The translations under genes and the position numbers were made by a program. Shown here piece after piece: positions 5,401 to 42,379 of a stretch of DNA of 64,000 nt (position 1 is the first letter of the stretch; each line of letters opens with the position of its first letter). Origin of the DNA: Candidatus Woesearchaeota archaeon. Its GTDB lineage: Archaea; Nanobdellota; Nanobdellia; Woesearchaeales; ARS49. The notes beneath the pieces were generated by a model. The model was not told the origin of the DNA. It saw nothing but the letters and a program-made list of their open reading frames with translations, and did no database searches. Where the stretch lies: the NCBI GenBank assembly GCA_017609645.1, contig JAFCDQ010000003.1, forward strand, positions 148,846 through 212,845, in the 5' to 3' direction.

Positions 5401-8400
5401 CTTGTAATGGTATGAATAATTCTTTGTTTAATATATCATATTTGCTTATTGTTCCTGCTATTTCTGGCGGAGTGACTTCTAATTCTTTTTCTCCTTGCCT
5501 GCAGTCGCATTCTCCTTTAAGGAAGCCGTCTGTTTCTTTGCATTTATATCCTTGGCTGCATTTTAATTTTAATCTTAAGTTAAGATCGCTTCCTGGCGCG
5601 ATCATTATTCCAAAATGATAAAGCCATTTTGCTGATCCTTTTACAGGATAACTTGATGGATCATATCCTATGAATCTTCTTGAGCAAGGGAATATTACTG
5701 CTGAGCTGTCTATTGGTACTTCTTCTAATGACATATCAAACAGAACGTCTGGATCTAGGCTCCACGTGCCTGTAAATGCAAATGAGCACATGCTGTGCAC
5801 TAACTTCCTGTCTACAAACATTGCTTTGTATAATCCTGTTCCGCCGTATCTTTCTTCTACATCTCTGCCTACATTACTCGCTGATGTTGTTAATGCTGTT
5901 AATACATTTTCTACGCCTCCTATTTCTACTCTTTTATTTGCTTTTGGCATGCTGTATTTTTCTGAGAAACATTTTACTACATTAAATATTAAATCACACA
6001 CATATGTCTCTAGTACTGCTTGGCATACTCCTTCGCTTCCTTCTCCTGTTGTTCTTACAACATCAAAGCAGTTTTTGGATGCAGTTAGTATGTTTTTCCA
6101 TAATTTCAAATTAGCTACCATGCCTGGCAGGCAGATGCATTGTCCTGAACGCAATAGTCCACTTGATGGTCTGACAATGTATTCTTTGTCTTCTGAACCT
6201 ATTTTTGTGATTATGCTTTCATATAATTCTGTGGCTCTTGCTTTTGTTATGCATGAAGCACCTTTGCCTGCTGCAGTACATAATGCTTTTTGGAATCCTT
6301 CAATATTTTTTATTTTTCCTGTTGCGTAATATTCTTCTATTATTTCTGGTGTGAAGAATGTGTCAGCCTCTGCTGCTTCTAGTTCTATTGCTTCTAGTTT
6401 TGCATTTAAGTAATGTCTTTTTCCTTCTGCAATTATTCCTGATTGCTCGCTTTTTTGGAAGTTAAGAACTTCTACTACATATCCTAGTTTTACTGTGTAA
6501 AGGCTTGTTGATTTTGTTAAGCTCATTAGCACTTTTTGTTCTTCTGTTAATGGTATGACAAACACATAGAGCATTTGTTCTGGGCTGAATTCTGATAATC
6601 CTAATTCTTTTATTTTATCGTCACTAAACTTCACAATCTTGTATGTTTCTGGTGTTGGCCCTCCTTTTGCTTCGCAGAATCCTGCAACAGAGTTCCATAA
6701 TTTGTTGCATTCTACTTTTTCTTTGCCTACTTCAAATTTGTTTTGTCCTACTCTTTCTGAACTTAGGCATGTGCTTTCTTTTATTTCGTCAAATGTGTCT
6801 AAAAATTCTAGTTTACTTAGTCCGCATGCGCTGCCCCAGGTGTCCATGTATTCATATCCACAGCATTCTGCAGTTGCTGGATGAATTCCTGAGCAGCTCA
6901 GTCCTGTTATTTTTTCTTTTTCTCCGTCATCTTGATGTTTTAGATAGTTTCCATATATTTTTTTTACTTCGTCATTGCTAATCATTAATTTTCCTTTTAC
7001 TCCTTTTTTGTTTTGTTTTATCCATGCCGCACAGTCACTGCCTTGGTATATTTTCCCGTCAATGGCGTATTTTGCTGTTTCTGCATTTTTTGGAATATTT
7101 TTTATCTCGCTTATTCTGTTTTGCTGTCTTTTGATGTATGTTTGTAATGTTGGGGCGTCTGGACAAGCTACTCTGTCACATACTTGTTGATAGATTGATT
7201 TTACTTGATTATAAGTTTCTACTGCATCTTGGCAGGATTTACAGTTTGTTTGTGTTTCTCCTGTGTAAATTTCGCACATTCCTGATTTTGCTATGTTTGG
7301 ATTAAATCCTTTTCCTGATAGGAAACTTGCTGCTGCATTTAATTCGCAGTTTAATGTTTTTTGAACTTGAAAGACATACATTAATACATTTCCTGCTAAG
7401 CAGCCTATTGTTGCTACTTTTCCGACTGTTTCTATTGGTTTTAGTATAAAGTCTATTCCTTTTATTATATCTCCAAAACGCCTTGATAAGAATTCTAATG
7501 CTCCTGATGGTATTATGTCAGCAGGGATTAGTTTGTCTATCATCATTTCTTGTTCTATGCATATTTTTTGTACTTTATTCTCGCTTATTTCTTCTTCTAC
7601 ACTTTCTCCTGAGTATGGATCTGTTACCCATCTTTTCTTAACTTCTTGGAATGGAATCTCTAACTCGAGCATAAATCTTCCGCAGCCAAATCCTGGAACA
7701 AGGCAGTTTCCTTCTCTATGATTGCTTAATTCCATTAACCTGTCTGAGGTTAGTGCTTCTGGATCGTCTGAAAGTAAGTCTAGTGGATTAAAATTAAATT
7801 GTATATATCCTTTTACTTTTTCATTTTCATATCCTCGAACAGGTGTTGCTATTGTGTTTATGTTGACCCATCCATTATCATATTGGTTTGCAACTGCTGG
7901 GCTGAGCATCATTGCATTTGCTTTTATTGCGTTTGATCTTAGTCTTATTTTGTTTACGCCTTTGTATTCTAGTTCAAATGCAAGTCCTATTTGCTGCATT
8001 CCTTCAAACATTAATCTTGGAGTTAGTATATCAGGTATTGGTGTTGAGATTCGTGATTCAAACCACGTGCCGTAACCGCATATTGCATATTCTACTATGC
8101 TTTCTGGTGTTTCTGTCATTAATCCTACTGCATCAACAGCCTGTAATTTGATTTTGTTTGCATAACCTCCTCCTGCTTGCAGTGTTGCTCTCATTTCACT
8201 TGAGGTCATGCCTGCTCCTGTTGTTTTTAGAACAATTTGTGCTGCAAATGTTCCATCATTTTCTGTTAGAACTGTTTTTTCTGCTTTGCCGTTCAAGAAT
8301 ACTGTCACGCTTGCTTTTTCATTTAATTTTCCTCTTACTATTACTGCTTTTTTGTATGAAGGGGTTAATTCTTCGAGATTTGTTTCAATGAATTGAGGAG

Positions 8401-9253
8401 GTCCTGAGTCATACATTATTTCTTTCTTTGTGATTGTTCTAAATCCTGCTTCATCTTTTGCAGTTATGATTACTTCATTTTTTCCTTCAAATAAATCTAT
8501 TGGGATTGTAAAGTTTCCTTCAACACTTTTGTTTTTTGTTCGTGATTCATCACTATCTTCTTTATTGATTTGTATTATCAGTGTTACTGGTTCATTCACA
8601 TATCCATTAAGTTCAATTATTTTTTGGGTCGTTACATCTTCTATTTTAATTTCTAATTGAGGAGGTTTTGTGTCAACTTTGACTGTGAATTCTTTTGTTA
8701 GTTCCTGTCCTCCTATATTTATTGCAGTTATTTTCAATTTGTTTGTATCTTTTGTTAATGCTATGTTGGTTATTGTGAATAATTCTTCTTTTGTCAGGAT
8801 GTTTTTCTTTTCTATGCCATTAACAAATACTCTTATTGTTGTCTCAGGAATTGTTTTTCCTTTTATCTCGATGCTTGTGCTTTTTGCTACTTCAGGCACA
8901 TCTAAATCTAGATAGAATTCTTTTACTGTGAATGTTCCTTCTCTCAATGCACAATCAGGGGTAAGCAATTCTGTGCAGCTTAGTATTTTATAGACGTATT
9001 CTCTTTGTTCTGTATTAAATGTAAATTCATGATGTGTTTTCTTGTCTTGGTATGCTTCGCCTAAAATTTCCTTAAAAGAGCCGTATCCATATTCAAATGT
9101 TGCATTTGTTGCGATGTCTGTGTTCCAGGATACTGTTGTTGTGGTTTCTGTGTGTGTGAAAACTACATTTGTGATAAAATCAGGTTGTGCTAATACTGAT
9201 ATTGCTAGTGCTATGATAATGAGGATCATGATGTTTTTTATTTTTATTTTCAT
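2405..9253 (-). CDS. Giant secreted surface protein (2282 aa): signal peptide, FN3-like N-terminal module, Cys-rich central region, about 900-aa K/E-rich coiled-coil C-terminus
   Basis: Single uninterrupted ORF. The N-terminus MKIKIKNIMILIIIALAISVLAQP is a signal peptide, and TVSWNTDIATNATFEYGYG is an FN3-like start. The C-terminal third is heptad-like and Lys/Glu-rich. Its start overlaps the stop of the upstream pilin-like gene by 4 nt. Confidence 0.8.
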   Translation of the reverse strand: MKIKIKNIMILIIIALAISVLAQPDFITNVVFTHTETTTTVSWNTDIATNATFEYGYGSFKEILGEAYQDKKTHHEFTFNTEQREYVYKILSCTELLTPDCALREGTFTVKEFYLDLDVPEVAKSTSIEIKGKTIPETTIRVFVNGIEKKNILTKEELFTITNIALTKDTNKLKITAINIGGQELTKEFTVKVDTKPPQLEIKIEDVTTQKIIELNGYVNEPVTLIIQINKEDSDESRTKNKSVEGNFTIPIDLFEGKNEVIITAKDEAGFRTITKKEIMYDSGPPQFIETNLEELTPSYKKAVIVRGKLNEKASVTVFLNGKAEKTVLTENDGTFAAQIVLKTTGAGMTSSEMRATLQAGGGYANKIKLQAVDAVGLMTETPESIVEYAICGYGTWFESRISTPIPDILTPRLMFEGMQQIGLAFELEYKGVNKIRLRSNAIKANAMMLSPAVANQYDNGWVNINTIATPVRGYENEKVKGYIQFNFNPLDLLSDDPEALTSDRLMELSNHREGNCLVPGFGCGRFMLELEIPFQEVKKRWVTDPYSGESVEEEISENKVQKICIEQEMMIDKLIPADIIPSGALEFLSRRFGDIIKGIDFILKPIETVGKVATIGCLAGNVLMYVFQVQKTLNCELNAAASFLSGKGFNPNIAKSGMCEIYTGETQTNCKSCQDAVETYNQVKSIYQQVCDRVACPDAPTLQTYIKRQQNRISEIKNIPKNAETAKYAIDGKIYQGSDCAAWIKQNKKGVKGKLMISNDEVKKIYGNYLKHQDDGEKEKITGLSCSGIHPATAECCGYEYMDTWGSACGLSKLEFLDTFDEIKESTCLSSERVGQNKFEVGKEKVECNKLWNSVAGFCEAKGGPTPETYKIVKFSDDKIKELGLSEFSPEQMLYVFVIPLTEEQKVLMSLTKSTSLYTVKLGYVVEVLNFQKSEQSGIIAEGKRHYLNAKLEAIELEAAEADTFFTPEIIEEYYATGKIKNIEGFQKALCTAAGKGASCITKARATELYESIITKIGSEDKEYIVRPSSGLLRSGQCICLPGMVANLKLWKNILTASKNCFDVVRTTGEGSEGVCQAVLETYVCDLIFNVVKCFSEKYSMPKANKRVEIGGVENVLTALTTSASNVGRDVEERYGGTGLYKAMFVDRKLVHSMCSFAFTGTWSLDPDVLFDMSLEEVPIDSSAVIFPCSRRFIGYDPSSYPVKGSAKWLYHFGIMIAPGSDLNLRLKLKCSQGYKCKETDGFLKGECDCRQGEKELEVTPPEIAGTISKYDILNKELFIPLQGDQSMVRYDTAELSWSWTDPNGQFRDDSVTCSIGQTGTHPPNFCAFDLFTLSFRCVFGEQEGGVMFRDLTIKAPHTIKQNKKEITIFTIKDKFEAELAISQDYPSPPKPVYNKFLAWQIKDAKGRIVTQKDPASETFAGKTILNTNGDYTVSTLDAGIGNIFVTKEWMGEKTIGMRILEWDKDKETAKMSDTLSQSDIRLSFIRPGELQLFEEFKIIREEKQPYAASISYLLVIDEENGELVYRIHESKDLEDKVKNSAYGFEYTERINLDKGDYKTKIVFIDKAKNIEVVINLPAKDKIGKIKGKRKEFKIIQTIAGDICADAKTKYQPQRFTVIFQAYDADKYGNPTSMQSIDPVIGSPVEMKKEFYVVCEIPEKEIIEEATANDLLFQIRQALDPLDGYINDEKVISDNINVFLQKTDMAKIYVDITNYIEREAEPLESQVEEKLLELIDKYNALAKETEKLQADDLAKILDILTRKLQRFNEVKKNDADIKAYLKGVIDLIEDAQKEKEKVLTEAERLTGVALPPKASEGEAIAKIKEIAIDTIIAKSKSARGQLKEVLPAIQTGKYYTPADTARDHINTYFTELARAEKQITELLESVKTTSQLTEINKFMKNLATKKQIIDDLKKNILKKSSEESVKQNIQKTINEIAEIEIRAMLYVGKITYFKNTLNFLFNNIDAEKELRIKRNAGQATKNQIQKTEIKFLRELQKNYYELPQTLNDLKLNNEWKKQMNAFDMELRKCMNNYQQNCLDNLIIVKENLKTSVVLIRLEFKGEIKPAVKPSPKALNSEMKRYTQTADDAKVFILDILKNSKDYVSGQNMADNLQYLKGKIKAYKAKLSDIHHGYQLQQLNNIIAALDSITPEQTGKYRMEQYVNETLKIPAHLISKSIIEREQQVKKDLLYTEESDLALMRNVLPEEYKLWIYLADNGDLWGVLTLEENFLKVASNIGLTRFDKYQEKIDECRAYKDYVCTEELLLEMINEKYNRVNEIFNY

Positions 9254-11241
9254 TTTATTATTGGCAGCAGTGCTGTTTGGTATTTTGTTGTAGCGTCATA
9301 ATATCCTTTATCTAAAAATGCGAGCAGGTTCTGCAGGTCTTGTTCTCTTGAAGGGTTTGGTCTGTATTCAACCAAATTTAATTGTATTTTATCTTTGCCT
9401 AATAAATCATGATAACTTACTCCATAATTTTCTTTTTGGTATCCTCCTATTATCATGTCTCCTGCTACTAGATACATTTCTAGTTCATATCGCGCATCAT
9501 CTAGTACAAAGTCCAGAGTTTCATCTTCTGGGAAGATTTTATATTGTTCATAATCTGTTCCTTTTAGTTTTAATGACAGCATAATTCTTTCTTTGTCTTT
9601 TAGTTTGAATCGGTTTTGGTCTGTCTGCCATTGTCTCATGTTTGATTGATATGGATGTATCACAAATTCTGGTTTTAATGCCTGTAGTTTTTTCAGGTAT
9701 ATATCCAGTGTGTCTTGTGTAAGCCATTGTGCTGAGTCAAGATATCCTTTTTTTGTTGCAAGTACTCTTGGATTGCCGCAGCCTTGAGGAACATTTGTTC
9801 TTAATTCAATATCCCCGTTGCTTTGTACTTGTGTCTCACCCATTTCGCAGTCTATGCTCATACATTCTAATGTTATGTTTACTTCTTCAAGAGGTATGCC
9901 AACTGGGCTGTATGGTTCAAAGCCTAGTACTTTGATTTTTATTTCTCTTTCCCCTTGTTCTTCACAAAATCCTGAGCCAATATACATTGGTTCAAATTGT
10001 CTCATGCCAAAGTTAACTCTTTCAGGCGCATTGTCACTTATTATTACTGGCGTTCCAAATTGAAATACAAATCCTTGATTGTCAAATGCTTTGTCGTCTT
10101 TTACTATGACTTTTAGAGGATATATTATATCATATGTGAAGTGCCATTGGTTCATGCAGAAAAATGGTATTAAGTTTTTTGATCCTTTTGCCACCTCACT
10201 TTTTAGCCATTTGCCGTCGTGAGGAAGAGCGCTCATTAATAATTGTGAAGGGTCATAAACAAATTTGACTTTCAAGTCTGTGCTTGAAAGTTTTGGATCA
10301 AATGTCATCTTGTTTATTTCATACACATCTGCAGGAATATCTCCTTCAATTTCTACTGAACTTATTTTTCCTTTGATCAAGTCTTCTGTGATGTCTTCTC
10401 CTTTACTTTTTAATTCGTCATATACTCTTTGCGCTGCTAGCGGCGCTGGTTGAGGAGTATTTTTGATTCTTATCATAGGTATTGTGTAGAATAATATTTT
10501 TTTCATTCTTTCTTGCACTGTTTCTAGGTTCCATTTCTTTTGTGTGCATCCTGCTTCCATTCCTCCTAATGGTATTTTGTCGTCTCCACTCATCATGTCT
10601 ATTGTAAGTTTTTCCAGCCATTTTTGTTTGTTTTCTTCTGCCAGGATTTGTACTGCTGTATCATACATTTCTCTGTATCTTGATTCTTGCAATGCAAAGT
10701 ATTCAGAATGCATGACTGTTCTTTGTTGTGTGTTTATGTTTAGCGGCCATTTTATTTCTGCCACTACTTCTTCTTCTGCATATGTCACTAAAACATCTGG
10801 TTCTTCTAATATTTGCACCATTTGGGATGGCGCTAATGCTTGAAAGTTAACACAGGTTTGTATTTCTTGTTTTATGTATCTAGCTAGTTGTGTTTGCATT
10901 AGTCCATAACTAGGTATTCTGTTTTCTGTTTCATAATACCAGAATGGAACTTTCACAACTCCTAATGAATCTGCATTGATGTAAGAATCTGGATTGCTTA
11001 ACACAAATGCAGGGATTTCTATGTATCCTCCTTGCAGTCCTTGTATTATTAGTCCTTGTTTTAGTGCATTTTTTGCACAGTCATTTACCATGTCAAATAC
11101 TGGTCTTACGTCACTGGGAACACTTGGTGCAGTTCTCCAGGGCTTAGCAGCTTCTGTCGTTACAAAGTATAGAACCATTCCTATTGTGATTATTAAGATT
11201 AAACCTAAGATTATGAATATTGTTAGTTGTCCTTTTCTCAT
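9250..11241 (-). CDS. Large (663 aa) protein with a class III (type IV prepilin-like) signal peptide; paralog of the 711-aa protein at 18052..20187
   Basis: N-terminus MRKGQ followed by about 22 hydrophobic residues (LTIFIILGLILIITIGMVLYFV). A Shine-Dalgarno-like AGGGGT lies 3 nt before the ATG. Shared motifs with the 711-aa paralog are QGGYI, PFWYY/PYWWY and CVNFQAL/CVNNFAGL. Confidence 0.7.
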   Translation of the reverse strand: MRKGQLTIFIILGLILIITIGMVLYFVTTEAAKPWRTAPSVPSDVRPVFDMVNDCAKNALKQGLIIQGLQGGYIEIPAFVLSNPDSYINADSLGVVKVPFWYYETENRIPSYGLMQTQLARYIKQEIQTCVNFQALAPSQMVQILEEPDVLVTYAEEEVVAEIKWPLNINTQQRTVMHSEYFALQESRYREMYDTAVQILAEENKQKWLEKLTIDMMSGDDKIPLGGMEAGCTQKKWNLETVQERMKKILFYTIPMIRIKNTPQPAPLAAQRVYDELKSKGEDITEDLIKGKISSVEIEGDIPADVYEINKMTFDPKLSSTDLKVKFVYDPSQLLMSALPHDGKWLKSEVAKGSKNLIPFFCMNQWHFTYDIIYPLKVIVKDDKAFDNQGFVFQFGTPVIISDNAPERVNFGMRQFEPMYIGSGFCEEQGEREIKIKVLGFEPYSPVGIPLEEVNITLECMSIDCEMGETQVQSNGDIELRTNVPQGCGNPRVLATKKGYLDSAQWLTQDTLDIYLKKLQALKPEFVIHPYQSNMRQWQTDQNRFKLKDKERIMLSLKLKGTDYEQYKIFPEDETLDFVLDDARYELEMYLVAGDMIIGGYQKENYGVSYHDLLGKDKIQLNLVEYRPNPSREQDLQNLLAFLDKGYYDATTKYQTALLPIIK

Positions 11242-11297
11242 ATTACCCCTTTTTTTACTTTTGCTGCCTTTTTTGAGCTTACTTTTATAGTCTTGCT

Positions 11298-11392
11298 AAC
11301 CGCGACAGGGGGTTGCCCCCTTCGGGGATGTCGCCACTCAAATAAACTTTGCAGTCAAGCGAATTGGCAGCAAAGTCTACCCCCTTGTTCCC
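11298..11392. other. GC-rich structured intergenic element (candidate small RNA, leader or attenuator) between the 297-aa membrane-protein gene and the 663-aa pilin-like gene
   Basis: The only strongly GC-rich island in the window. Outer stem GCGACA (11302-11307) pairs with TGTCGC (11329-11334) and encloses a GGGGG-UUG-CCCCC hairpin (11308-11320). That hairpin competes with a CCC-UUCG-GGG tetraloop hairpin (11318-11327). A second 7-bp stem ACTTTGC/GCAAAGT (11346-11352 / 11370-11376) has a 17-nt loop. I found no tRNA cloverleaf. Confidence 0.35.
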
Positions 11393-12286
11393 CTAAAGTT
11401 TAAATTTTTCAATAAATGTTTTCAAATAATTTCTCAGCCACACTACAAGAAGCGCTAACAATAATGCTTGTATGTAAAATGTTGTTGTTGGCGTTAAAGT
11501 TAATGATAATAATGAAAGTATTACTGCAATTAAAAAATAAATAAAGATAATGTAGCTTATTGGATTGAGGCATTTTGATATTAATGTCAGACTTTGTATT
11601 CCTTTTGCAAAGCTTTGTTTTATTTTGTTTGTTTTCAGCATATTGTAATGCAAAAATGTTGTCATATATATGTAAAATACAAGGAATATTGTAGGAATTA
11701 GTGATACTGCTATTTGTCCAGCGAAAGCATCTTCTTTCGGTGCAAAAATATAATATAATATTCCCCACATCAGCCACCATAATAAGTTTAATGCAAAAAA
11801 CTTAAGCAATTTTTTCTTGTTGAATTTTTGTTTAAGTAGTTTTAGCCAAACAAAATATTTCAATATTGAGTATATTATTAAAAGCAAAAGCAAAAATACT
11901 GCGAATATTAATATGATGTAAACGATTGTTTGCTGTGCTAATGCTAGATTTTGTTGTATTGCTTCAAATGTTTGTTCTGTCAATTGTGTTGAAGCGATTT
12001 TTTCAGCGACTTTAGAAACTAATTTTAGCGCCCCTTGTAATAAAAAGAAGAATATTACCAAATAGGCTATATCTAAAACAAATATTGTGAAGATTGTTTT
12101 GTTGAATTTAAATGATTTCAGGAATGTTTGGAACTTTTTCTTGTCTGTTTTTGTTGGAATAAGCAGGACTAATCCTGCTAGCGCAAGTATGATAAAAAGA
12201 TTTTGTTTAACAAATATTGTCAATCCTATTCCTGCTAAAATACTTATGATCCCTATTACTTTTTGTGTTATGTTTTTTATTTTCAT
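11393..12286 (-). CDS. Polytopic integral membrane protein, hypothetical (about 8 predicted TM segments)
   Basis: 297 aa, almost entirely hydrophobic helices. It lacks prepilin-peptidase and archaeosortase motifs. Its start overlaps the upstream gene's stop by 4 nt. Confidence 0.6.
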   Translation of the reverse strand: MKIKNITQKVIGIISILAGIGLTIFVKQNLFIILALAGLVLLIPTKTDKKKFQTFLKSFKFNKTIFTIFVLDIAYLVIFFFLLQGALKLVSKVAEKIASTQLTEQTFEAIQQNLALAQQTIVYIILIFAVFLLLLLIIYSILKYFVWLKLLKQKFNKKKLLKFFALNLLWWLMWGILYYIFAPKEDAFAGQIAVSLIPTIFLVFYIYMTTFLHYNMLKTNKIKQSFAKGIQSLTLISKCLNPISYIIFIYFLIAVILSLLSLTLTPTTTFYIQALLLALLVVWLRNYLKTFIEKFKL

Positions 12287-14811
12287 ATTAATGTACCATC
12301 TTCTGCATCTTCTGATTGTAAGTTATTTGCTGCCAGATTTCTTGAATCCATTGTGCTTGCCGGTCCTGCTCCTGCAAATGGCACACAATATTCACTTTTT
12401 GCACCTGGGAAATCTGCATCAGTCCATTGCATAGCTGCTGGAAGAAGTCCTCCTGTAATTGAACCAATTCCACCTAATATTGTTCTTGCCCATAAGTCTT
12501 CATAATCTTGAACAAATTCATCTATTTTTTCTTTAAACACTAAACAAATTTGATTATAATCTGTTGTGCTGTATTTGATAAAGTGTCTTGTTGCGCCTTG
12601 TCCTGGTTTGAGATATTTCCAGTCAGAGAACCATCTTGCTCGTCTTTCAGGGCCTCTGAATTCTACATTCACGTGCAAGTCTCTGTCTAATGGATTATTT
12701 ACTCTCATTTGTGCATTGTAAAGCCACATAGTGATTACTTCCATTTTCTTTATGTCGAGTTTTGGATCTGTGAAATCTACTTTTACACCGTCAATAAATG
12801 TCTGTTCTCCAAATAAATCTACTAATTCTTGTCTTGTTAATCCTTTGAATTCTATTGAGTCTGATCTCTCACCCACAAGTAAGGCAGCTCCCATTGGTGC
12901 TGCAGTGTCAGGCCCTTTTGTTAGCATGTAATTGCTTGGGCTTGAACTGATAAATCCTTCACATATATGTGATGTCCAGCATTCTTTTAATCCACCTATC
13001 ACACAGAATTTATCTTGAATCTCCTGCTTTCTCTTTGCAGCTTCTTGTAAATAATCAGAATCAAATATTAATGCGCTTAAGTATGCAAATCCCTTATATT
13101 GATTGAATGAATGTGTTAATACTCCTAGAAATCTCCACGTTCCCATTGCACTTATCTTTTTGCCTACAGAAACTGGCAAAGTTAAGTATATTGTTATCAT
13201 TTTTTGTTTGGCTTTTTCTAGCATTTTTTTCATTGCTGGAGTTAATCCTTTTTTTGCCAATAATGCATCATAAAGTTCATCAAATGTTAATGCTTTTCCT
13301 GTTGTTTTTGCTTTTGCTAATAAAGCATCTAATTCAGTATTCAATTTTTTTATAGACTCTCGTGATAATCCTTGCTCTTTTGCTGCATCTTCTAAGACTT
13401 TTTTCGCTTCCTCAAAAAGAGCAGTTGCAATTGCTAAATCTTCATCTGCTGTTGCTGAATCAAATCTTGCTATGTCTTCATTTTCCTCTGCTATTTCTAA
13501 CTTTACTTTATCTTGATCAAGCAATTTTTTTGCTTCTTCAATTGTATCAAGAGTTCGTTCTGCATCTGCTTTCATAACTTCTAATTTTGCTTTGTATTCA
13601 TTTTCCTTTGCTTGCTCTAGTTTTGTTTCTGCTTCATAAAAAGCTTGTTTTGCTTTTTGATATTCTTCTCCTGGTTTTGCTGTTGTTGTTGCTTCTTGTG
13701 CTTTGTCAAATTCAGTTAATGCCTTGGTATATGCAGTTACTGCAGTTTCATACGCTTTATCTGCTTCTATGCTTGCTAATGTATTTTGGTACAGTATTTG
13801 TGAATTTTGATATTTTGCTTCTGCATCTCTATATTCTTCTAGTACATAGTTATATACCTGCTCTGCTGATTCACTATATCGTTTTGCTTCATTTAGTTCT
13901 AACAGTTTTTTCCCTCTATCCATCTCTGCATTTTCTTTATCTTGTGTCGTTGCGTCTTCTATCACTTCCCATGCCAAAAGATCGTTGCTAACTTTTAGAT
14001 AGTCTTCGCCGATTTGTTCTACGGCTAAATCTATAAAATTTCCATCGTTATCAAGTGTATAAGACTTAAATGTGTCTTTGTCTTGCATTACATTAAAGAT
14101 TGTGTTCCATTTTCCTGCAATAAACACTTCTTCAGTACTTCCAATTTTGTTGCCTTGATAATATTGGTTTTTTATTTTTCTTTTTAATTGCCCTGTTTTT
14201 TTGTCAATTACTAACTCAACTTTTGAAACTTGATATCCTAAGTTTGCTTTTTTGTCTGCTTCTGATAATTCTTTATGCAGTTTACTTGCCTTGTCTAGAA
14301 CATATTCTTCTACTGTTCTTCTTAATTCACCATTAGCACTTAATTTGTTTTCAGTTCTTATTGTTGTTTTGTATTCTTTTAATCCTCTGCTCCATTCTTG
14401 TGTGCTTTTGCCCCAGTAATTTATGCTTCCATCTGCTTCAACTCTAAAAGAATCTGCTTTTTTGATATCTTCATATATATTTGAAGTTAGATATTTGTTT
14501 TGGACATATCCTTCAGCTTGTAAGTCTTTAGCACTTACAACGACATCTTTGATTTTGAGTTCTCCTTTTATTAAAGGAATAATTCTGTTATTCTTTGAAG
14601 AAACATAGTAGTCTGCACTACCTGGAGTTTGTTTCATTTTATCTGTCACTGTTTCTTTTGCAGGTTTAGGCGTGATTCCTATTTTATTATCTTCAATCAA
14701 CTTATTTACAGCTCCTTTTTCTGGAGCTTTAGTATCTGCTGCATAAGCTATAAAGCTACTTAAGAAAATCATGATTATCATTATTCCTATAAATCTTCTA
14801 GAATGGTTCAT
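12283..14811 (-). CDS. Large secreted protein (about 840 aa) with a central coiled-coil region of about 190 aa
   Basis: The track ORF extends to 14895. The in-frame Met at 14811 gives a signal peptide (MNHSRRFIGIMIIMIFLSSFIAYAA) and cuts the overlap with the upstream gene to 14 nt. The central segment is A/E/K-rich and heptad-like. Confidence 0.65.
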   Translation of the reverse strand: MNHSRRFIGIMIIMIFLSSFIAYAADTKAPEKGAVNKLIEDNKIGITPKPAKETVTDKMKQTPGSADYYVSSKNNRIIPLIKGELKIKDVVVSAKDLQAEGYVQNKYLTSNIYEDIKKADSFRVEADGSINYWGKSTQEWSRGLKEYKTTIRTENKLSANGELRRTVEEYVLDKASKLHKELSEADKKANLGYQVSKVELVIDKKTGQLKRKIKNQYYQGNKIGSTEEVFIAGKWNTIFNVMQDKDTFKSYTLDNDGNFIDLAVEQIGEDYLKVSNDLLAWEVIEDATTQDKENAEMDRGKKLLELNEAKRYSESAEQVYNYVLEEYRDAEAKYQNSQILYQNTLASIEADKAYETAVTAYTKALTEFDKAQEATTTAKPGEEYQKAKQAFYEAETKLEQAKENEYKAKLEVMKADAERTLDTIEEAKKLLDQDKVKLEIAEENEDIARFDSATADEDLAIATALFEEAKKVLEDAAKEQGLSRESIKKLNTELDALLAKAKTTGKALTFDELYDALLAKKGLTPAMKKMLEKAKQKMITIYLTLPVSVGKKISAMGTWRFLGVLTHSFNQYKGFAYLSALIFDSDYLQEAAKRKQEIQDKFCVIGGLKECWTSHICEGFISSSPSNYMLTKGPDTAAPMGAALLVGERSDSIEFKGLTRQELVDLFGEQTFIDGVKVDFTDPKLDIKKMEVITMWLYNAQMRVNNPLDRDLHVNVEFRGPERRARWFSDWKYLKPGQGATRHFIKYSTTDYNQICLVFKEKIDEFVQDYEDLWARTILGGIGSITGGLLPAAMQWTDADFPGAKSEYCVPFAGAGPASTMDSRNLAANNLQSEDAEDGTLI

Positions 14812-17800
14812 ATTCTGGTTCTCCTCCGTTTTCTCCAGACGCTGTTGTTTTATCATATTCTTCTGCCCATTCTTCCATTTCACCGCACCATTCATTTGTT
14901 ACCATTCCCATTTCATTTTGTCTGTTTGTCATTGCAGCAATACTTGCCCATGCTTCTCCTACTTCTGCAGCTACCCTATACAATGAGCATGCTGTATGAA
15001 TTTGTGCTGGTTTTGTTTCACAAGTCAAGTCACACCAGGTTCCAAAGAATGTTGTAACTATTGTCCATGGATTTGCTAGCATCTCACCTAGCATTTGACT
15101 GATTCCTTCAAAGAATTGTGAGAATGGTATTATGTCAAATAAGGGTCCGCCCCATACATATGCGCAGTTCATGTAATGATTTGTATCTTTGCAATAACTT
15201 ATTGGAACTCCTGTTTCTTTCCAGTCTTTTTCTAAGCAGGTTGCATATTTGCATTCTATTTGTGCTATTTTATTGATGTTTCTGATAATTCCTGGCAAAC
15301 AAAGACATGCCGTGCTTAAGTAAATATTATCTTTTATATTTGTATACATTCTCATGTTTCTTTCGCCTTCTCCGAGATTTCGCATGTTTCCTTGCATCAT
15401 TGCCCAGCCTGCTGTTAAGCTGCCACCTTGATCCATTATCCAGTCTTCAAATGCAGTGCACCATGGAGCTCCTCCTCCAACTAGATTTTCAATTCCCCAT
15501 TGGTCTTTTCCTCCGCTTGACTGACAATTTACTACAGCGCAGGCTTTGTCTAAGATTGTGTATAATGGAACTCCTAGTAATTTTTCTTCTTCAGGTATTA
15601 CTATTTTTTTGAATGAGGATTGTTTTCCTCCATATGCTCCGTCTATTTTTTCTTCTATTTCACATATTGGAGCTCTTGTGAGATAGATTGATTGGGATAT
15701 TGCAGGTCCAAAGACAGGAATGGCGCTTGTTGAGTCTTCCACGTTTCCTATTACTGCAACTAGTGCTGCTCCTGTTGATATTATGCTTGTTATGATTCCT
15801 TTCCATTCACATACTTCTTCTGCTATGTTAACTATTTCATTCATTGTTTCTAAAAGATCTGATTTAAGCACTCTTGCAGTATCCACAGCTTCTTTGATTG
15901 TTTTTTCTCTTCGTTCATAAATATCTCCAAGAGGCAAATCATAAAATTCTAAAAGAATGTCTACATCTTCTTCTTGAGGTGTTGTGTATATTGTTTGTTC
16001 TCTTTTTGAGTAGATTGTTAATGGACATGATAAGCTTAAATTATCTAGATAATAATCTCTTGCAGGAAGTTGTATCATAAAGTAGGGATTTGTGCTTCCT
16101 GGTGCTGTGTTTATTGTGCTTATATCGTCAATAAAGTTTGTTGTATTTCCAATACAATCATTTATTGATGTAGGTCCGATGATGCTTACTGTTTCTGCGC
16201 TTGAGCTTGTGCTTAAATCAACTTCACATACTACTCTTTGAGGTAGTTGTGATGTTGTTTTTCTGTCTATTGGCTGCGGCCTGCATGTTACATCACTTGT
16301 CCAGTATTTTCTTGCAGTGTCAACATCAAGTTCATATATTGTCATGTTGTATTCTGTTTCTGTTGTGTCATCAAATATGTCTGTGAATATGAAATTTATT
16401 GTTGCTTCTGCTGGTCCGCTTATGTCAACTACACTTTCAAACAAACATTCATCTAATCCTGTTATGCTGCTTAAGCTGCATTCAACAGCGTCTGAATCAC
16501 TTTCACCGCCTATTGCACTAAAGTCAGCAAAAGCATTTTCAAAGTTTTTGCTTTCTACAACAAATTGGACTGTGTCTCCTCTAACTGCTTCTCCTCCTAC
16601 ACCTTCTGGTCCTGGAATTACTATATAGTCTATTACTTTTGGTTTTAATGGTCCTTCGCTTTGATAAAATATTTCAAATTCTTGTCCAGAGTCTATTTTG
16701 TTTCCTAAATCATCTTGCGTGTCTGAGGATAATTCAAAATCATATATTCCTGAATTTGTTGTTAAGAAATTTGGATGTATGTTCCATTTGCAGTCCCATT
16801 TGTCAGCTGCAGTATTCTCGCACAAATCTGCTTGTAATTTTTTATCTGCAGATCTTCCTGTTAGATCATAAATGTTAAGATATGCTTTTCCTAGGTTCAT
16901 TCCTACTCCTGGATCACCGTCAGTATCTTTTTCTGAGAATATAATTGTGAAATAAGAATTATAAGCTGCTATTGGGTTTCCGTCTCCATCTACTGGCCCT
17001 TTTCCAATCTGAACAACAACAGGTGATTTATCATCTGCTTCTATATCAAAATCAAGTGTTCCTTGGCCTTGATTTCCTATGTTGTCTGTTGCTCTTACAA
17101 GTATTGTTCCAGAACTTTCTTCATCAACTTCCAGACCAGTCCAGTAATAAAAATTAGGAATTTGTTTATTTGAATAAGGAACTAATTGCACATTGTCATT
17201 AAATGGAGTTAGTTTTGCTTTTACTGTTGCATCTTCTATTCCGCTTAAATCAGTGATTTCTGCTCTGACACTTACTTGCTCGCTTCTTCCTGGCAGGACA
17301 TGTGTTATTTGTGCTCCTTCTGCATTTGTTAATGCTACTTCTATTGTTGGAGCTCCTTCATCTATGTAAAAATCATCACAAGCAGTATCTTCTCCGTCTA
17401 AGAAATCTCTAACAGTTGCGCATGCTCTTAGTTCATTTTCATCTCCATCATATATATAATCAAATCCTTCTGTTATTTCGCATTCTCCGGCCTCGCCTGT
17501 TATTGTTCCTACTTCTTCCATGTTAACATAGAATATGATTTCTTTTATTCCTGAGCATTCTGCTGATGCAGTTGTTGTGCCGTAATCTTTTGCCGTTACA
17601 GCAAAATTTACAGGGCCTGTTGTCATTTCTGGTTCTACATTAAAGCTTATTATTTCTGGGTCTGTATCATCTATGATTATTGTTTCTTCTAATGTTTCTC
17701 TTAAGATTGTATCTTGGTCATGAAGTGTTACTTTAAAGTCTATTTTTTCTTGTCCAATAAGATCTAATTCATCAGTATACGTGCAGGTGTAATAATCATC

Positions 17801-18055
17801 TGTTCCTTTTTGGCAAGTATCAAATGGCGCAAACACATTGCCTATCCAGAAGTTGACTCTTGATGGAAGTATGTTTTCATTTAACAGCATTGCTTTTGCT
17901 TTTATTGTCAAGGTATCTTTTGATCTTGCAAAGCCGTTTGCTTCATCTTCTCCGCTGTATCTGACCAGCTGCAAGTCAGATGTTTCTGCAATTGATATTG
18001 GAAGCAGAACTATCAGGATGATCATCATTATTGATATTTGTTTTTTTGAGTTCAT
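14798..18055 (-). CDS. Giant secreted protein (1085 aa) with acidic DxDxDG-like calcium-binding-type motifs and a Cys-rich C-terminal domain
   Basis: Signal peptide MNSKKQISIMMIILIVLLPISIAETS. Motifs DTDGDPGVG, PVDGDGNPI and DDTDPE are present. Its start overlaps the stop of the 711-aa pilin-like gene by 4 nt. Confidence 0.75.
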   Translation of the reverse strand: MNSKKQISIMMIILIVLLPISIAETSDLQLVRYSGEDEANGFARSKDTLTIKAKAMLLNENILPSRVNFWIGNVFAPFDTCQKGTDDYYTCTYTDELDLIGQEKIDFKVTLHDQDTILRETLEETIIIDDTDPEIISFNVEPEMTTGPVNFAVTAKDYGTTTASAECSGIKEIIFYVNMEEVGTITGEAGECEITEGFDYIYDGDENELRACATVRDFLDGEDTACDDFYIDEGAPTIEVALTNAEGAQITHVLPGRSEQVSVRAEITDLSGIEDATVKAKLTPFNDNVQLVPYSNKQIPNFYYWTGLEVDEESSGTILVRATDNIGNQGQGTLDFDIEADDKSPVVVQIGKGPVDGDGNPIAAYNSYFTIIFSEKDTDGDPGVGMNLGKAYLNIYDLTGRSADKKLQADLCENTAADKWDCKWNIHPNFLTTNSGIYDFELSSDTQDDLGNKIDSGQEFEIFYQSEGPLKPKVIDYIVIPGPEGVGGEAVRGDTVQFVVESKNFENAFADFSAIGGESDSDAVECSLSSITGLDECLFESVVDISGPAEATINFIFTDIFDDTTETEYNMTIYELDVDTARKYWTSDVTCRPQPIDRKTTSQLPQRVVCEVDLSTSSSAETVSIIGPTSINDCIGNTTNFIDDISTINTAPGSTNPYFMIQLPARDYYLDNLSLSCPLTIYSKREQTIYTTPQEEDVDILLEFYDLPLGDIYERREKTIKEAVDTARVLKSDLLETMNEIVNIAEEVCEWKGIITSIISTGAALVAVIGNVEDSTSAIPVFGPAISQSIYLTRAPICEIEEKIDGAYGGKQSSFKKIVIPEEEKLLGVPLYTILDKACAVVNCQSSGGKDQWGIENLVGGGAPWCTAFEDWIMDQGGSLTAGWAMMQGNMRNLGEGERNMRMYTNIKDNIYLSTACLCLPGIIRNINKIAQIECKYATCLEKDWKETGVPISYCKDTNHYMNCAYVWGGPLFDIIPFSQFFEGISQMLGEMLANPWTIVTTFFGTWCDLTCETKPAQIHTACSLYRVAAEVGEAWASIAAMTNRQNEMGMVTNEWCGEMEEWAEEYDKTTASGENGGEPEYEPF

Positions 18056-20187
18056 CTTAATACTGGTTTTAATAATGGCGCTTTAGCGATTGATTCATCT
18101 TTTATTTTGGTTATTTGGTCTAAATCTTCTATAAATCTTTGATCTTGAGGTACTTTGTCTATTGCAAGTGAAAAATATGTAAGCAGTAATTCTTCAGAAT
18201 CATATAGTTTATCAGGTGTGACTGTGAAGTCTATCTCCATCATAGTTGTTGGAAATGGATTTTCTGCATTAAATATCATGTCTTCTGGAGGTAGGTCATA
18301 CGATCTTCGTTTAGTTATAGGAATAAGTCCAAATATTTTTTCTGGTTCTATATATCTTGTGTCTTTTGGTATTACTATGTTTTTTGTTAAAAAGCCTGTT
18401 ATGGTGATTTTGTAGTTTCCTGGGATTAATGTTATTGTGTTTTCTTTTCCTCCTGATAAATCTGTTATTGCTGCAAAATCATCTTCAAACTGGCCTGGTT
18501 CTTTTGTAATCATAACCATCAATTCTTCTTCTTTATCTACTGGATGAAACTCGGTTGTATCTAGTTTCCATTTTCTTACTCCTTCTTTTTCATACAAATA
18601 TTTTCTGGCATTTACTTTGAGTTCTTTTTCTGGATACATTGTTATTGCAAGTTTTCCTTCTTTATCTCCTGTTGTTAATGGAGCATATATTGTCATGTAT
18701 CCTTGTCTTTTGATTTCTAATAATCCGTTCAAGCATCTTGGGAATTTAGAATTAAATATTCCTTGTGCTGTTGTTCCTAGCGCACATGCTGTGTCTCCAC
18801 AAGTGTAGATTATTGATGCATCATCTATGAATTCTTTTGTTGCATAATCTTTCAACTCGATATTTATTTCTCCGCTTGTTCTTTGGTTTGCTTTGCAGAA
18901 TAGGTTAGAGTCAAGATTTTTTAATGCTGCTGCCAGTTTTGTGTTTGATGTGAATGGATTATTATTTCTTAGGTTTGCTTCTAAGAAGAATTTAAAGCTG
19001 TATCCTTTGCCGCCTAGTGCATTTGGATTTGTTATCTCAACTAATACAGGTATGCTTATGTCATATGCAAAATTGTATTTTTGTATTCCAAATATGAAGA
19101 AGCTTTCTGATAATAATGAATTGTCAGGCCTGCATAATTCTCCGTCACAGTTTAAGTCTATGTAGGGTTTCCACCAGTCAAGATAATAAAATCTGACTTC
19201 TAAATCAGGATGAGGCGTGTCCATTGGTATTAAGAACTGTCTGTTGTACATTAGTTCATATGCTTCTGCATCTCTCACACCAGGTGGAGAAGGAACATAG
19301 TTGAAGTTTCTTGTTCCGCTTAATTGTAATAATGGAATATAGCTTGTGAGCATTTGAGTGATTTTCTTTTGTACTTTACTTTTTAACCAAAAGGTTTCTT
19401 TGCCTGTTTCAAATGTCATGTCAGATACAGGAGGCAGTGCATTTTTGTCAAGCTCAGAGAATGAATAAACCAGTTCTTTTATTGCATTTTCCAAGAAGGT
19501 GTATTCTATTTCTATGTTTGTTATGTCTGTTGCTAAATCATATATTTCTTTTAGGTTTACATTCACTGTTGCTGCAAAGTTAGCTAAGTCTTGTGTTGTT
19601 TTGTCTTTTGTTGCTTCTAACTCCCAATCTAATGAAATTAGAATGTCATTATCGCGGATGATTAATTCCACGTCAGGTCTTGATTTTTCTTCAACAACAT
19701 AGCCTTGTTCTCTTAATCCTGCAAAATTGTTGACGCATGCTGCAATGTTTTCTTCTACATAATCTGTTAATTGTTCTTCTATGTTTATTTTTCTTCCTGA
19801 GTATAGTTCAGGTCTTTTTGTTTCAAATGCACATTTGTCCTGGCATTTGTTTGGACTTTGCATATACCACCAATATGGTGATACAGGACCTTTCCCTCCT
19901 AATGATACTGCATCTGCTTCTGTTGGCGCATAAGGATTTTGTGCATAGTCAGGCAGGATATATCCTCCTTGCGAGCCTAATAAGTCAAGTCCATCTATTG
20001 TTGTTTTCTTGATGCAGAGCAGCACATAACTTGTTACAGGATCTGCTTCTGCGATTGGCACTACAGGAGTTATTGCTTTTCTTTCTATTGGTTTTTCCGC
20101 AACCTGAACAAAATAGATGACTAAAGCTATTGTGATTAATAGAATTATTCCTATTATAATGAACAATGTTACTTGTCCTTTTCTCAT
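18052..20187 (-). CDS. Large (711 aa) protein with a class III (type IV prepilin-like) signal peptide; paralog of 9250..11241
   Basis: N-terminus MRKGQVTLFIIIGIILLITIALVIYFV. A Shine-Dalgarno-like AGAGGAAAC precedes the ATG. It shares the N-terminal domain with the 663-aa paralog. Confidence 0.7.
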   Translation of the reverse strand: MRKGQVTLFIIIGIILLITIALVIYFVQVAEKPIERKAITPVVPIAEADPVTSYVLLCIKKTTIDGLDLLGSQGGYILPDYAQNPYAPTEADAVSLGGKGPVSPYWWYMQSPNKCQDKCAFETKRPELYSGRKINIEEQLTDYVEENIAACVNNFAGLREQGYVVEEKSRPDVELIIRDNDILISLDWELEATKDKTTQDLANFAATVNVNLKEIYDLATDITNIEIEYTFLENAIKELVYSFSELDKNALPPVSDMTFETGKETFWLKSKVQKKITQMLTSYIPLLQLSGTRNFNYVPSPPGVRDAEAYELMYNRQFLIPMDTPHPDLEVRFYYLDWWKPYIDLNCDGELCRPDNSLLSESFFIFGIQKYNFAYDISIPVLVEITNPNALGGKGYSFKFFLEANLRNNNPFTSNTKLAAALKNLDSNLFCKANQRTSGEINIELKDYATKEFIDDASIIYTCGDTACALGTTAQGIFNSKFPRCLNGLLEIKRQGYMTIYAPLTTGDKEGKLAITMYPEKELKVNARKYLYEKEGVRKWKLDTTEFHPVDKEEELMVMITKEPGQFEDDFAAITDLSGGKENTITLIPGNYKITITGFLTKNIVIPKDTRYIEPEKIFGLIPITKRRSYDLPPEDMIFNAENPFPTTMMEIDFTVTPDKLYDSEELLLTYFSLAIDKVPQDQRFIEDLDQITKIKDESIAKAPLLKPVLR

Positions 20188-20207: not shown

Positions 20208-21122
20208 TCAGCTGACTTTCAACGTTATCGGAATTTTTGTCAGTTTTCCTAAATCAGATGCTATCACAGTTATGATTTTATCTCCTGTGACTCCTGCTTT
20301 TGGTATGATTATCATTTGATTTCTTTCAACTCTTATGTCTATGCCATCCTCTGTGGTGGATAAAAATACTAATTCATCACCTTCTGGATCTTTGAATTGT
20401 TTTGAAAGGTCTATTATTGTTTTTCCTTTAACTGCAAAGTCTTTTGATTCTCCTATCCATTCTGGAGGCTGGTTCTCTGTTCTTTCGATATGGTAAATTA
20501 ATTCATTTACTTCTAGCCTTCCATTTATTACTTCAACAAATAATTTAGCTACAACTCCTTCAAAATCATTTAATGTACAAGTGTCTAAGCATGATTTTGT
20601 GAATTTTCCTTCATCATCTAATGCAACTTGTTCAGTATCAAACACCAAGACTAATTGCTCTTTATGTTCTAAGAATACTTTTGCTGATTCTCCTTCAAAT
20701 TTTCCAGATATAGCAAAGGATAATGGTACTTGTTTCAACATACCTGTTGAGACTGTTGTGTTTTCAAATACTAAAGTTACTGGTTGTGATATTTCATCTT
20801 GAAATGTTGTTAATCCTACAATCCCTGGATTTAATGCAACAATTATGCTAAAGACTATTATCAGCACTCCTGCGACTATGATGTTTAATGGCATTTTGGT
20901 CGTGCCTTTTTGCACTTCTTTTATTCTGTTGAATACTTTTGTTATTTGATCATATGCTAGTTCTCTTTGAAATTCATCCATGTTTGTTTTCATTAATTTA
21001 GAATAAATATCTAGAAGCAGGTAATATTGTTTTCTGGCAGAGTCTACTCTGCTTGCATCCAAGTGTTGCTGGGCTTTATAGTAGCTTTCTACGAAATCTT
21101 TGACTAGTTGACTTTGTTCCAT
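20208..21122 (-). CDS. Single-pass (type II) membrane protein, hypothetical: about 75-aa cytoplasmic N-terminal domain plus an extracellular beta-rich domain
   Basis: 304 aa with one hydrophobic segment (LNIIVAGVLIIVFSIIVAL) after a charged N-terminal region. First gene of the locus on the minus strand. Confidence 0.55.
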   Translation of the reverse strand: MEQSQLVKDFVESYYKAQQHLDASRVDSARKQYYLLLDIYSKLMKTNMDEFQRELAYDQITKVFNRIKEVQKGTTKMPLNIIVAGVLIIVFSIIVALNPGIVGLTTFQDEISQPVTLVFENTTVSTGMLKQVPLSFAISGKFEGESAKVFLEHKEQLVLVFDTEQVALDDEGKFTKSCLDTCTLNDFEGVVAKLFVEVINGRLEVNELIYHIERTENQPPEWIGESKDFAVKGKTIIDLSKQFKDPEGDELVFLSTTEDGIDIRVERNQMIIIPKAGVTGDKIITVIASDLGKLTKIPITLKVS

Positions 21123-36100: not shown

Positions 36101-36195
36101 GTGTAAAAAAAGTAAATAAAGGTATAAATAAGTATTCGTAAAAATTTACTAAGAAAAGTAGAAAAACGAACAAATCTTTGCTAATTTTAGTAAAA

Positions 36196-36203
36196 TTTAA
36201 ATA
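36196..36203 (+). promoter_or_regulatory. Candidate TATA box (TTTAAATA) 23 nt upstream of the ATG at 36227
   Basis: Same 8-mer and spacing as upstream of the genes at 1143 and 49035. Confidence 0.3.
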
Positions 36204-36226
36204 AGAATTACTTTTCTTAGACTAAT

Positions 36227-41701: not shown

Positions 41702-41708
41702 TTATTGT

Positions 41709-42368: not shown

Positions 42369-42379
42369 ATTTTAGAATA

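Follow-up and report, generated by a model that had tools for sequence, protein, structure and literature searches.

Small pilins of the Epd type, described in Methanococcus maripaludis, are the first system with which the locus reported here has to be compared. The locus lies in a 64-kb stretch of archaeal DNA (Candidatus Woesearchaeota archaeon, assembly GCA_017609645.1, contig JAFCDQ010000003.1, positions 148,846 to 212,845 of the forward strand; hereafter the window, with positions counted from its first nucleotide), and its central genes encode two paralogous proteins, designated A and B, that begin with a type IV prepilin-like (class III) signal. Epd pilins, which are processed by the peptidase EppA, resemble A and B in their short basic leader, in the site K-G|Q-[V/L/I] with Gln at +1 and Ser or Thr at +3, in the long hydrophobic helix and in the presence of several paralogues per genome (PMC4371748). 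Epd pilins usually have Glu at +5 and are encoded together with EpdJKL and EppA, whereas A and B are proteins of ~700 residues with Phe at +5, no match to Pfam PF04021 and no pilus genes nearby (PMC4371748).

A second group comprises GlcS, AraS and TreS of the Sulfolobus bindosome and a wider set of proteins (Sivabalasarma and Albers, 2026), which, like A and B, are large and extracellular and have a prepilin-type signal and an N-terminal hydrophobic helix preceding a functional domain. Also like A and B, substrate-binding proteins that bear a class III signal are encoded at a distance from the pilus machinery (PMC4371748; 10.64898/2026.04.22.720090). A preliminary description of the locus had stressed that A and B are far larger than canonical archaeal pilins. 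Size alone therefore has a precedent, and this argument is weaker than it looked because large non-pilin proteins with class III signals were already known. Bindosome-type proteins contain solute-binding Pfam domains and have neighbours encoding ATP-binding cassette (ABC) transporters, whereas A and B contain a domain without known relative and have giant surface proteins as neighbours. For A and B, we detected no solute-binding domain in Pfam, no solute-binding fold among PDB matches, and no adjacent ABC transporter.

In bacterial modular pilins and tip complexes (PilB and PilC of Streptococcus sanguinis; FimU-PilVWXE with PilY1 in Pseudomonas), a subunit with a prepilin signal presents a large adhesive module, as proposed here for A and B, and the tip-complex genes adjoin a gene for a large Sec-exported protein, as do those of A and B (PMC8179133, PMC9934059, PMC4858521). 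The bacterial proteins retain a complete pilin domain, whereas in A and B the helix is followed by a disordered linker. The preliminary description had likened A and B to such minor pilins or PilY1-like tip adhesins. This likeness did not extend to the domains, since searches of A, B and their giant neighbours revealed no PilY1, DUF2341, vWA or lectin domain, Pfam and NCBIfam returning only Big_13, Big_3_3, Glucodextran_B and Fn3, and it did not extend to the gene neighbourhood, as detailed below.

The signal and domains of A and B

Protein A (663 residues; 9250..11241) and protein B (711 residues; 18052..20187) are encoded by the minus strand, as are all genes for which coordinates in the window are given below. 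In each, no possible start codon precedes MRKGQ after the upstream stop, in agreement with the reading frames initially proposed. BLASTP aligned residues 1-560 of A with residues 1-562 of B over ~600 columns (24% identity, E=2e-22), and the motifs QGGYI, PFWYY/PYWWY and CVNF/CVNNF that had been quoted as common to both are present and align. It had also been proposed that the two proteins diverge after a common N-terminal domain; on the contrary, the alignment covers ~85% of their length, and only the last ~100-150 residues cannot be aligned. The first 28 residues are ~70% identical versus 24% for the whole proteins. A is a paralogue of B with an orthologue clade of its own. Chance open reading frames (ORFs) are excluded because hundreds of full-length homologues exist and both genes belong to one gene string conserved in relatives.

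In both proteins, MRKG is directly followed by ~22-25 uncharged hydrophobic residues. The hydrophobic stretches, LTIFIILGLILIITIGMVLYFV and VTLFIIIGIILLITIALVIYFV, reach mean Kyte-Doolittle values of 3.0 and 3.3 in a span of 19 residues. The leader and hydrophobic helix of A (QLTIFIILGLILIITIGMVLYFVT) occupy residues 1-28 (11158..11241) and contain a KGQL site. In B, the leader M-R-K-G (residues 1-4; 20176..20187), after the Gly4 residue of which class III cleavage is predicted, precedes the hydrophobic helix QVTLFIIIGIILLITIALVIYFVQV (residues 5-29; 20101..20175), which harbors the family motif Q-x-T-x-F-I-I-x-G.

To define the conservation of the signal, 257 B-type and 41 A-type proteins were collected. 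The motif [KR][KR][G/A/S]|Q-[ILV]-[TS]-x-[FY]-I-I-x-G was present in 232 of the former and 40 of the latter. Lys or Arg occupied position -3 in 87% and position -2 in 96% of the family (Lys3 in both A and B), and position -1 was Gly in 72%, Ala in 21%, Ser in 6% and another residue in <1% (Gly4 in A and B). Gln at +1 was at least 90% conserved (Gln5 in A and B), and all motif-bearing members had Thr or Ser at +3 and Gly at +9. In B, residues Q5, T7, F9, I11 and G13 were each at least 90% conserved. The length of the leader varied from 3 to 37 residues, with a median of 5-6.

All type IV pilin precursors require Gly, Ala or Ser at -1, and archaeal class III signals are recognized by this residue together with a charge at position -2 and a long H-domain (PMC4371748, Pohlschroder and Esquivel). 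The N-termini of A and B follow every sequence rule of this kind, as the preliminary description had implied, and the positions involved are conserved throughout the family. EppA needs Gln at +1 and processes EpdA-E at the sites KGQV, KGQL, KGQI and RAQI (PMC4371748, Table 1). The site of B, KGQV, is that of EpdB and EpdC, and the site of A, KGQL, is that of EpdD. The absence of Glu at +5 was also confirmed, both proteins having Phe at this position. Inspection of the family N-termini revealed no conserved A-x-A-type signal peptidase I site after the very long hydrophobic region, which argues against Sec type I signals. Judged from these features, cleavage between Gly4 and Gln5 by a prepilin-type peptidase is likely. 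The helix is also the most conserved segment of B, with a mean column identity of 0.60, compared with 0.35 in the linker and 0.42-0.59 in the domains. Conservation of this strength, together with the ~70% identity between A and B, is unusual for a passive membrane anchor, and the positive-inside rule by itself does not readily account for a site fixed in position behind a leader of variable length.

The structure of B was modelled with AlphaFold2 from an alignment of 78 sequences (predicted local distance difference test [pLDDT] 89.7; predicted template modelling score [pTM] 0.72). The model comprises a helix (residues 2-30), a disordered linker, an alpha/beta domain (46 to ~430) and a beta-rich C-terminal part (440-711). 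The flexible linker, assigned to residues 30-45 (20053..20100) on the basis of low pLDDT (<50 for residues 31-40) and low conservation, is the least conserved region of the protein and splits the helix from the globular part. The predicted structure is not that of a pilin. The alpha/beta ectodomain (residues 46-430; 18898..20052) was predicted with a pLDDT of 92.7 and a pTM of 0.90 when residues 41-430 were modelled separately. Its conserved core consists of GGY at 74-76, W106, E233, W267, Y375-D376, P380 and eight nearly invariant Cys. No structural relative of residues 46-430 was found, and they form a new domain of ~390 residues. The C-terminal region (residues 431-711; 18055..18897) contains beta-sandwich domains of the transthyretin, CnaB or carboxypeptidase-regulatory type, which are more variable than the core. 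Beta-sandwich domains of this kind are found in surface proteins, and both this observation and the even number of nearly invariant Cys were counted in favor of an extracellular location.

B is the founding member of the family, and a word-indexed search gave 130 homologues of it. A has 41 homologues, named Woesearchaeota or Nanoarchaeota wherever a name is given. Among 1.84 billion cluster representatives (clusters at 50% identity), the B-family profile matched 8,944 at E≤1e-3, of which 6,287 remained at E≤1e-10 and 1,671 at E≤1e-30, although the N-terminal motif may contribute to the scores of matches at the weak end. When one genome per GTDB species was scanned, at least 430 loci with a relative were found. 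Among the 80 loci listed, titles were Woesearchaeota, Nanoarchaeota, Nanoarchaeia or the generic 'uncultured Methanosarcinales archaeon'. Metagenome-assembled genomes with the latter title (L003, L004, L006, L009, L012, L013 and others) show the same synteny of ThrRS, Pth2, S6e and the operon as those titled Woesearchaeota, at similar identity; the label is probably generic or wrong. The family has thousands of members, which, as far as the listed loci show, are confined to Woesearchaeota- and Nanoarchaeota-type lineages.

As first supposed, no described family in Pfam, NCBIfam or the PDB accommodates A and B. Pfam gave nothing at E≤0.1 for A or B and nothing at E≤0.01 for 46 members, family members had no Pfam or NCBIfam domain and no name beyond 'hypothetical protein', and PDB sequence and profile searches with the family were empty. 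No homologue was a known enzyme. More broadly, Pfam and NCBIfam searches with nine proteins of the cluster, and Pfam searches with the 46 members of the A/B family and with the families of three neighbouring genes (g1085, g870 and g297) supplemented by PDB searches, identified only immunoglobulin (Ig)-like or Fn3 domains. Matches to Rifin, Imm3 and similar families fell below the cut-offs and were compositional. We found no description of a family combining this domain, an EppA-like site with Phe at +5, coupling to giant proteins and the link to hydrolases reported below.

Coupling to giant partners in a conserved operon

Genes for ThrRS, Pth2 and ribosomal protein S6e are present in the window, which has a low content of guanine plus cytosine (GC; ~31%). 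From 1.7 to 22.7 kb, the minus strand carries all long ORFs in a tight string transcribed in the order g158, Pth2, S6e, g304, B, g1085, g870, g297, A, g2282 and g208, and every non-housekeeping protein of this string has an N-terminal signal or anchor. The pairing of A and B with giant proteins, already pointed out in the preliminary description, is borne out by 4-nucleotide (nt) overlaps of B with an ORF of 1,085 codons and of A with one of 2,282 codons; g870 and g297 overlap in the same way. The partner of B, g1085 (14798..18055), has a Sec signal, Ig-like repeats and a Cys-rich C-terminal region. The partner of A, g2282 (2405..9253), is a giant protein with a Sec signal, Ig/Fn3-like repeats and a Cys-rich core.

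The conservation of this arrangement was assessed by calling ORFs in 82 loci and searching them with the proteins of the window. A homologue of g1085 was located at most 400 nt downstream of B in 58 of the 70 loci in which the contig continued, with an overlap of exactly 4 nt in 29 of these 58. Downstream of A, a g2282 homologue was present in 14 of 16 loci, eight of them with the 4-nt overlap. The full string g304-B-g1085-g870-g297-A-g2282 was kept in at least 15 loci, with identities for B down to 35-40% (e.g. L001, on an 875-kb contig). The most distant B homologues retain B itself, a ~1,000-residue protein, a large third protein and a membrane protein of ~300 residues. Some genomes (L011, L022 and L024) harbor a third B-like module. 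These results indicate that A and B are encoded in a conserved operon in which each is translationally coupled to its giant partner.

The g1085 product contains 29 Cys, with invariant Cys columns in its conserved Cys-rich C-terminal region, and Big_3_3 was detected in 19 of 36 members of its family. The g2282 product contains 44 Cys. Alignment of its family revealed a conserved Cys-rich core (approximately residues 390-1400) and a variable C-terminal third, and Pfam matches were to Big_13 and Glucodextran_B; the C-terminal third gave only weak, non-significant PDB matches to Vipp1 and to a designed coiled coil (E 0.2-0.8). Comparison of the two families by hhalign identified a signal peptide and Ig-like N-terminal repeats in common (95%), the CxCLPG Cys-rich segment reaching only 43%. 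A common origin of the three large proteins of the operon (g1085, g870 and g2282) was considered and rejected, since BLASTP gave nothing significant and hhalign supported only this relationship between g1085 and g2282; g870 is unrelated to g1085, g2282, A or B. Apparent fusions of B with g1085 (L013, an ORF of 1,630 codons) and of A with g2282 (L009) were artefacts, the junctions being runs of N translated as X. Such runs (L013:1880-1960; L009, junction within 9810-13160) mimic fused ORFs and are a trap for automated fusion searches.

Two further genes of the operon encode membrane proteins. The polytopic protein g297 (11393..12286), located between the two pairs, has ~6-8 hydrophobic segments according to hydropathy, has homologues at the same position in at least 20 loci, and gave no credible Pfam match. 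Directly upstream of B, g304 (20208..21122) encodes a bitopic protein with, as judged from hydropathy, a cytoplasmic N-terminus, a transmembrane segment at residues 79-97 and an extracellular C-terminus; it is conserved at this position in 18 loci.

Sequons of the N-X-S/T type were also considered as an indication of location. In A, B, g1085, g2282 and g870 (window 2405-20187), 9 were present versus ~33 expected from shuffling. Six LivJ-like lipoproteins encoded elsewhere in the window (35039-49002) had 1 versus ~11.5, and nine cytoplasmic proteins had 20 versus ~21. The depletion in A, B and their partners resembles that of genuine solute-binding lipoproteins and was counted in favor of an extracellular location. 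As a trait of the A/B family, depletion was rejected, since it holds in the source organism only and not in other genomes.

The six LivJ-type solute-binding lipoprotein genes are paralogues grouped at 35039-50009 of the window. They are interleaved with genes for three double helix-turn-helix (HTH) regulators of ~320 residues resembling Lrp/AsnC, for HTH proteins of ~216-243 residues and for one set of ABC permease and ATPase. This expansion is unusual in a DPANN genome, which is supposed to be reduced. In some genomes (L021:9502-12097 and L026:5786-6914), the g1085-like and g870-like genes of the otherwise compact operon are separated by small PIN-like or toxin-antitoxin-like genes. A mobile or viral origin was rejected in view of the uniform GC content over the window and the kept synteny with housekeeping genes, and because tblastn against 50,697 phage records gave no match.

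Hydrolase-bearing homologues of the third gene product and small pilin-like proteins

The third gene of the module, g870 (12283..14895), encodes an N-terminal anchor, a variable, repetitive and charged middle part (coiled-coil-like, as judged by eye from the sequence) and a conserved C-terminal domain of ~280 residues, as defined by family alignment and synteny. The longest ORF overlaps the end of g1085 by 98 nt (14798-14895), and translation probably begins further downstream, at a Met a short distance ahead of the hydrophobic segment (…MNHSRRFIGIMIIMIF…).

Four proteins of the g870 family, from three genomes, carry an SLT or Peptidase_M23 domain in place of the variable middle. In L084, which contains a distant A homologue, two proteins of ~1,000 residues (2539-5550 and 5680-8982) are encoded between g1085-like and g297-like genes and match SLT (E 7.5e-18) and Peptidase_M23 (E 5.7e-7). 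The same operon position is occupied by an SLT protein in L021 (12466-15960; E 8.5e-26) and by an M23 protein in L026 (7025-11392; E 3.8e-17). In each of the four, the g870-family profile is matched by the C-terminal 250-430 residues (E 2e-13 to 6e-42). Since the hydrolase-bearing proteins keep the C-terminal domain of g870 (E 3e-28 to 6e-42), the family can be described as a scaffold with an N-terminal anchor, a variable middle and a conserved C-terminal domain.

Murein synthesis is not known in archaea of the Woesearchaeota/Nanoarchaeota-type group, and the SLT and M23 modules should therefore act on bacterial walls. Large extracellular murein lytic-transglycosylase proteins are reported by Castelle et al. 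(PMC8204110) to be typical of Woese- and Pacearchaeota and to occur in a lineage-specific module of mostly unknown families; a role of the SLT proteins in binding bacterial walls has been proposed (PMC8204110, PMC9723730), and Vigneron et al. (PMC9723730) and a 2025 survey (PMC12352652) reach similar conclusions. The proteins of L021, L026 and L084 come from the same lineages and probably belong to this group of large extracellular proteins (fam00969, 'module 98'; Castelle et al., 2021; Vigneron et al., 2022). These papers, as far as their consulted sections go, treat the hydrolases alone and draw no link to an operon or to a partner with a class III signal, whereas here the hydrolases are encoded with homologues of B/g1085 and A/g2282. 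Through the hydrolase-bearing g870 proteins, the 'large extracellular murein hydrolases' described in Woese- and Pacearchaeota become linked to the A/B operon.

A second class III-type N-terminus is found at the upstream end of the string. The product of g158 (22199..22675), a small pilin-like protein of 158 residues, starts with MKKG|QVGLGLVILGVITIIAIIGLVLLF (QVGLGLVILGV...) and has the K-G-Q site common to A and B; the pattern in its family is K-G|Q-x-G-I-x-L-V-I-L-G. Just upstream of the operon, ThrRS and Pth2 are separated by one to three homologues of 130-290 residues arranged in tandem (L001:5305-6066, L004:6241-7405, L005:392-1135, L007:6699-7997, L045:6334-7086, and also L003). g158 is a candidate filament subunit. 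Searches with the protein gave no Pfam or PDB match, a weak match of residues 84-115 to ubiquitin being spurious (it arose only through repeated polyubiquitin chains, with no significant stretch), and the N-terminal 51-68 residues of B and g158 matched no pilin or archaellin in the PDB.

A third class III-type N-terminus, KKG|ALELSITAIVVLIIAI (KKG|ALELSITAIVV type) or KKG|LELSLTVIVV, was observed in two proteins of ~200 residues encoded on either side of a gene for a Cys-rich lipoprotein-like protein of ~458 residues, 4-7 kb upstream of B (L012:3060-6146, L014:2800-5905, L025:301-3430 and L029:622-3677). These proteins had no Pfam match.

A proposed surface complex and its alternatives

We propose that A and B, each made with a class III signal of the EppA/Epd type, are exported and serve as subunits of a conserved surface complex specific to DPANN archaea of the Woesearchaeota/Nanoarchaeota type, and that each is co-expressed with a giant partner that it likely binds or anchors. 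We assign a probability of about 0.5 to this reading. An archaeal prepilin-type peptidase would remove the short basic leader between Gly-1 and Gln+1, and the unusually conserved hydrophobic helix would retain the processed protein in the membrane or as part of a short pilin-like helix bundle. The flexible linker of ~15 residues would then tether the disulfide-bonded domain of 390 residues and the beta-sandwich stalk outside the cell. B with g1085 and A with g2282 would be made together, A and B most likely binding, positioning or anchoring the Sec-exported, Cys-rich partner with its Ig repeats. With g870, g297 and g304, these proteins may build an apparatus in the envelope through which other cells are contacted. 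This last role is suggested by the Ig-repeat, Cys-rich partners, by the known or inferred symbiotic lifestyle of the group and by the hydrolase-bearing variants of some lineages, in which an SLT- or M23-bearing g870 subunit would point to bacterial cell walls as the target.

Several observations weigh against this proposal. The evidence for binding of A and B to the giant proteins is their gene order. Position +5 is Phe or Tyr in 100% of the motif-bearing family members, whereas EppA substrates usually have Glu, and PF04021 (Class_IIIsignal, DUF361) did not match A or B. A pilin or archaellin fold, in which a long helix packs on a beta-sheet head, was not seen in the model of B, which as predicted combines a pilin-type signal with the lack of a pilin fold. 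Neither in the window nor in the 10-kb surroundings of 84 related loci was a gene for a class III peptidase, a pilus ATPase or a platform protein identified. T2SSE, T2SSF and Peptidase_A24 gave no Pfam match in the 10-kb neighbourhoods of four annotated loci, and the window and the 82 loci contained no T2SSE-type Walker-A and no A24 GxGD-type motif, nor was there any recurrent neighbour family of this kind. The literature on type IV pilus components in DPANN archaea is conflicting, since they were reported missing from DPANN genomes (bioRxiv 10.1101/2020.05.14.094862), whereas a type IV filament (TFF) 'system 1' of the Epd type was reported in DPANN (bioRxiv 10.64898/2026.04.22.720090) and two type IV pilus systems in cultured Nanoarchaeota (PMC6142677). 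Concerning the bacterial target, Pfam detected no hydrolase domain in the g870 protein of the window, which differs in this from the fam00969-type proteins, and only four of ~30 g870 homologues carry one, indicating that the link to bacterial walls is lineage-specific. Finally, in one B-family member, P0097, the KGQ leader is replaced by a soluble domain of ~50 residues (…GYDAQVIRGYLLKYGYSPSDVDEA…) followed by a plain transmembrane helix, so that the ectodomain is apparently able to function on an ordinary anchor. The small domain of P0097 was also observed in a divergent ORF of 94 codons just upstream of B (L012:9482-9766, L014:9573-9857 and L029:7188-7472, all on the minus strand) and in a family of 308-residue proteins in 18 loci (e.g. 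L028:4550-5476, minus strand), with no Pfam match.

Alternatively, A and B might after cleavage be true minor or tip pilins, located at the tip or base of a filament that resembles a type IV pilus and consists of small pilins such as g158, and presenting the giants as minor pilins present PilY1. The K-G-Q site of g158 and the adjacency to large Sec-exported proteins fit such an arrangement; the missing pilin head, the linker and the lack of pilus genes in the neighbourhood do not, and we consider it unlikely. It is similarly improbable that A and B are uncleaved signal-anchor (type II) proteins, with a Sec-inserted helix and a KGQ sequence inherited with another role, for example in topology or in interaction with g297. 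A helix of membrane-spanning length followed by a disordered tether is what such an anchor would look like, and P0097, the lack of peptidase and pilus genes nearby, the reported lack of type IV pilus components in DPANN genomes and the negative PF04021 search all agree with it. However, the positive-inside rule covers the Lys and Arg residues, not Gly, Ala or Ser at -1 and Gln at +1 kept at a fixed distance from the helix despite a tenfold variation of the leader, and the same site recurs in the unrelated family of small proteins next door (g158). S-layer proteins are usually Cys-poor, and an S-layer or envelope scaffold, in which the giants would form an outer lattice held by A and B as membrane stalks in the way SlaB holds SlaA in Sulfolobales, is very unlikely since the partners have 29 and 44 Cys, the fold likeness to SlaB is limited to a generic beta-sandwich, the anchor of SlaB is a C-terminal helix that follows a coiled coil whereas that of A and B is N-terminal and neither has a coiled coil, and two or three different modules per genome with hydrolase variants fit an apparatus better than a lattice.

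The surface-complex reading leads to a bolder possibility, which we regard as tentative and rather doubtful at present. A, B, the giants, g870, the polytopic protein and the small pilin-like proteins would constitute an undescribed organelle present throughout Woesearchaeota/Nanoarchaeota-type DPANN archaea, in which 'mega-pilins' with a new 390-residue fold mount giant proteins via the prepilin pathway to form an apparatus for host attachment and wall breaching. Much of archaeal diversity belongs to Woesearchaeota and their relatives, none of which is known to have been cultivated. If correct, this interpretation would provide the long-sought host-attachment and wall-breaching apparatus of uncultivated episymbionts, including those living on bacteria.

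Earlier genome surveys had recorded large lytic-transglycosylase proteins and, separately, hypothetical membrane proteins restricted to particular lineages. The A/B locus connects both in a conserved, translationally coupled operon that encodes two anchor-like subunits with prepilin signals and a variable third subunit bearing murein hydrolases in some lineages. If A and B function as proposed, this operon would offer a widely conserved set of target genes for labelling in cryo-electron tomography, metaproteomics, heterologous cleavage assays and structure determination, and the archaeal prepilin pathway would extend to non-pilin cargo of ~75 kDa in DPANN archaea.

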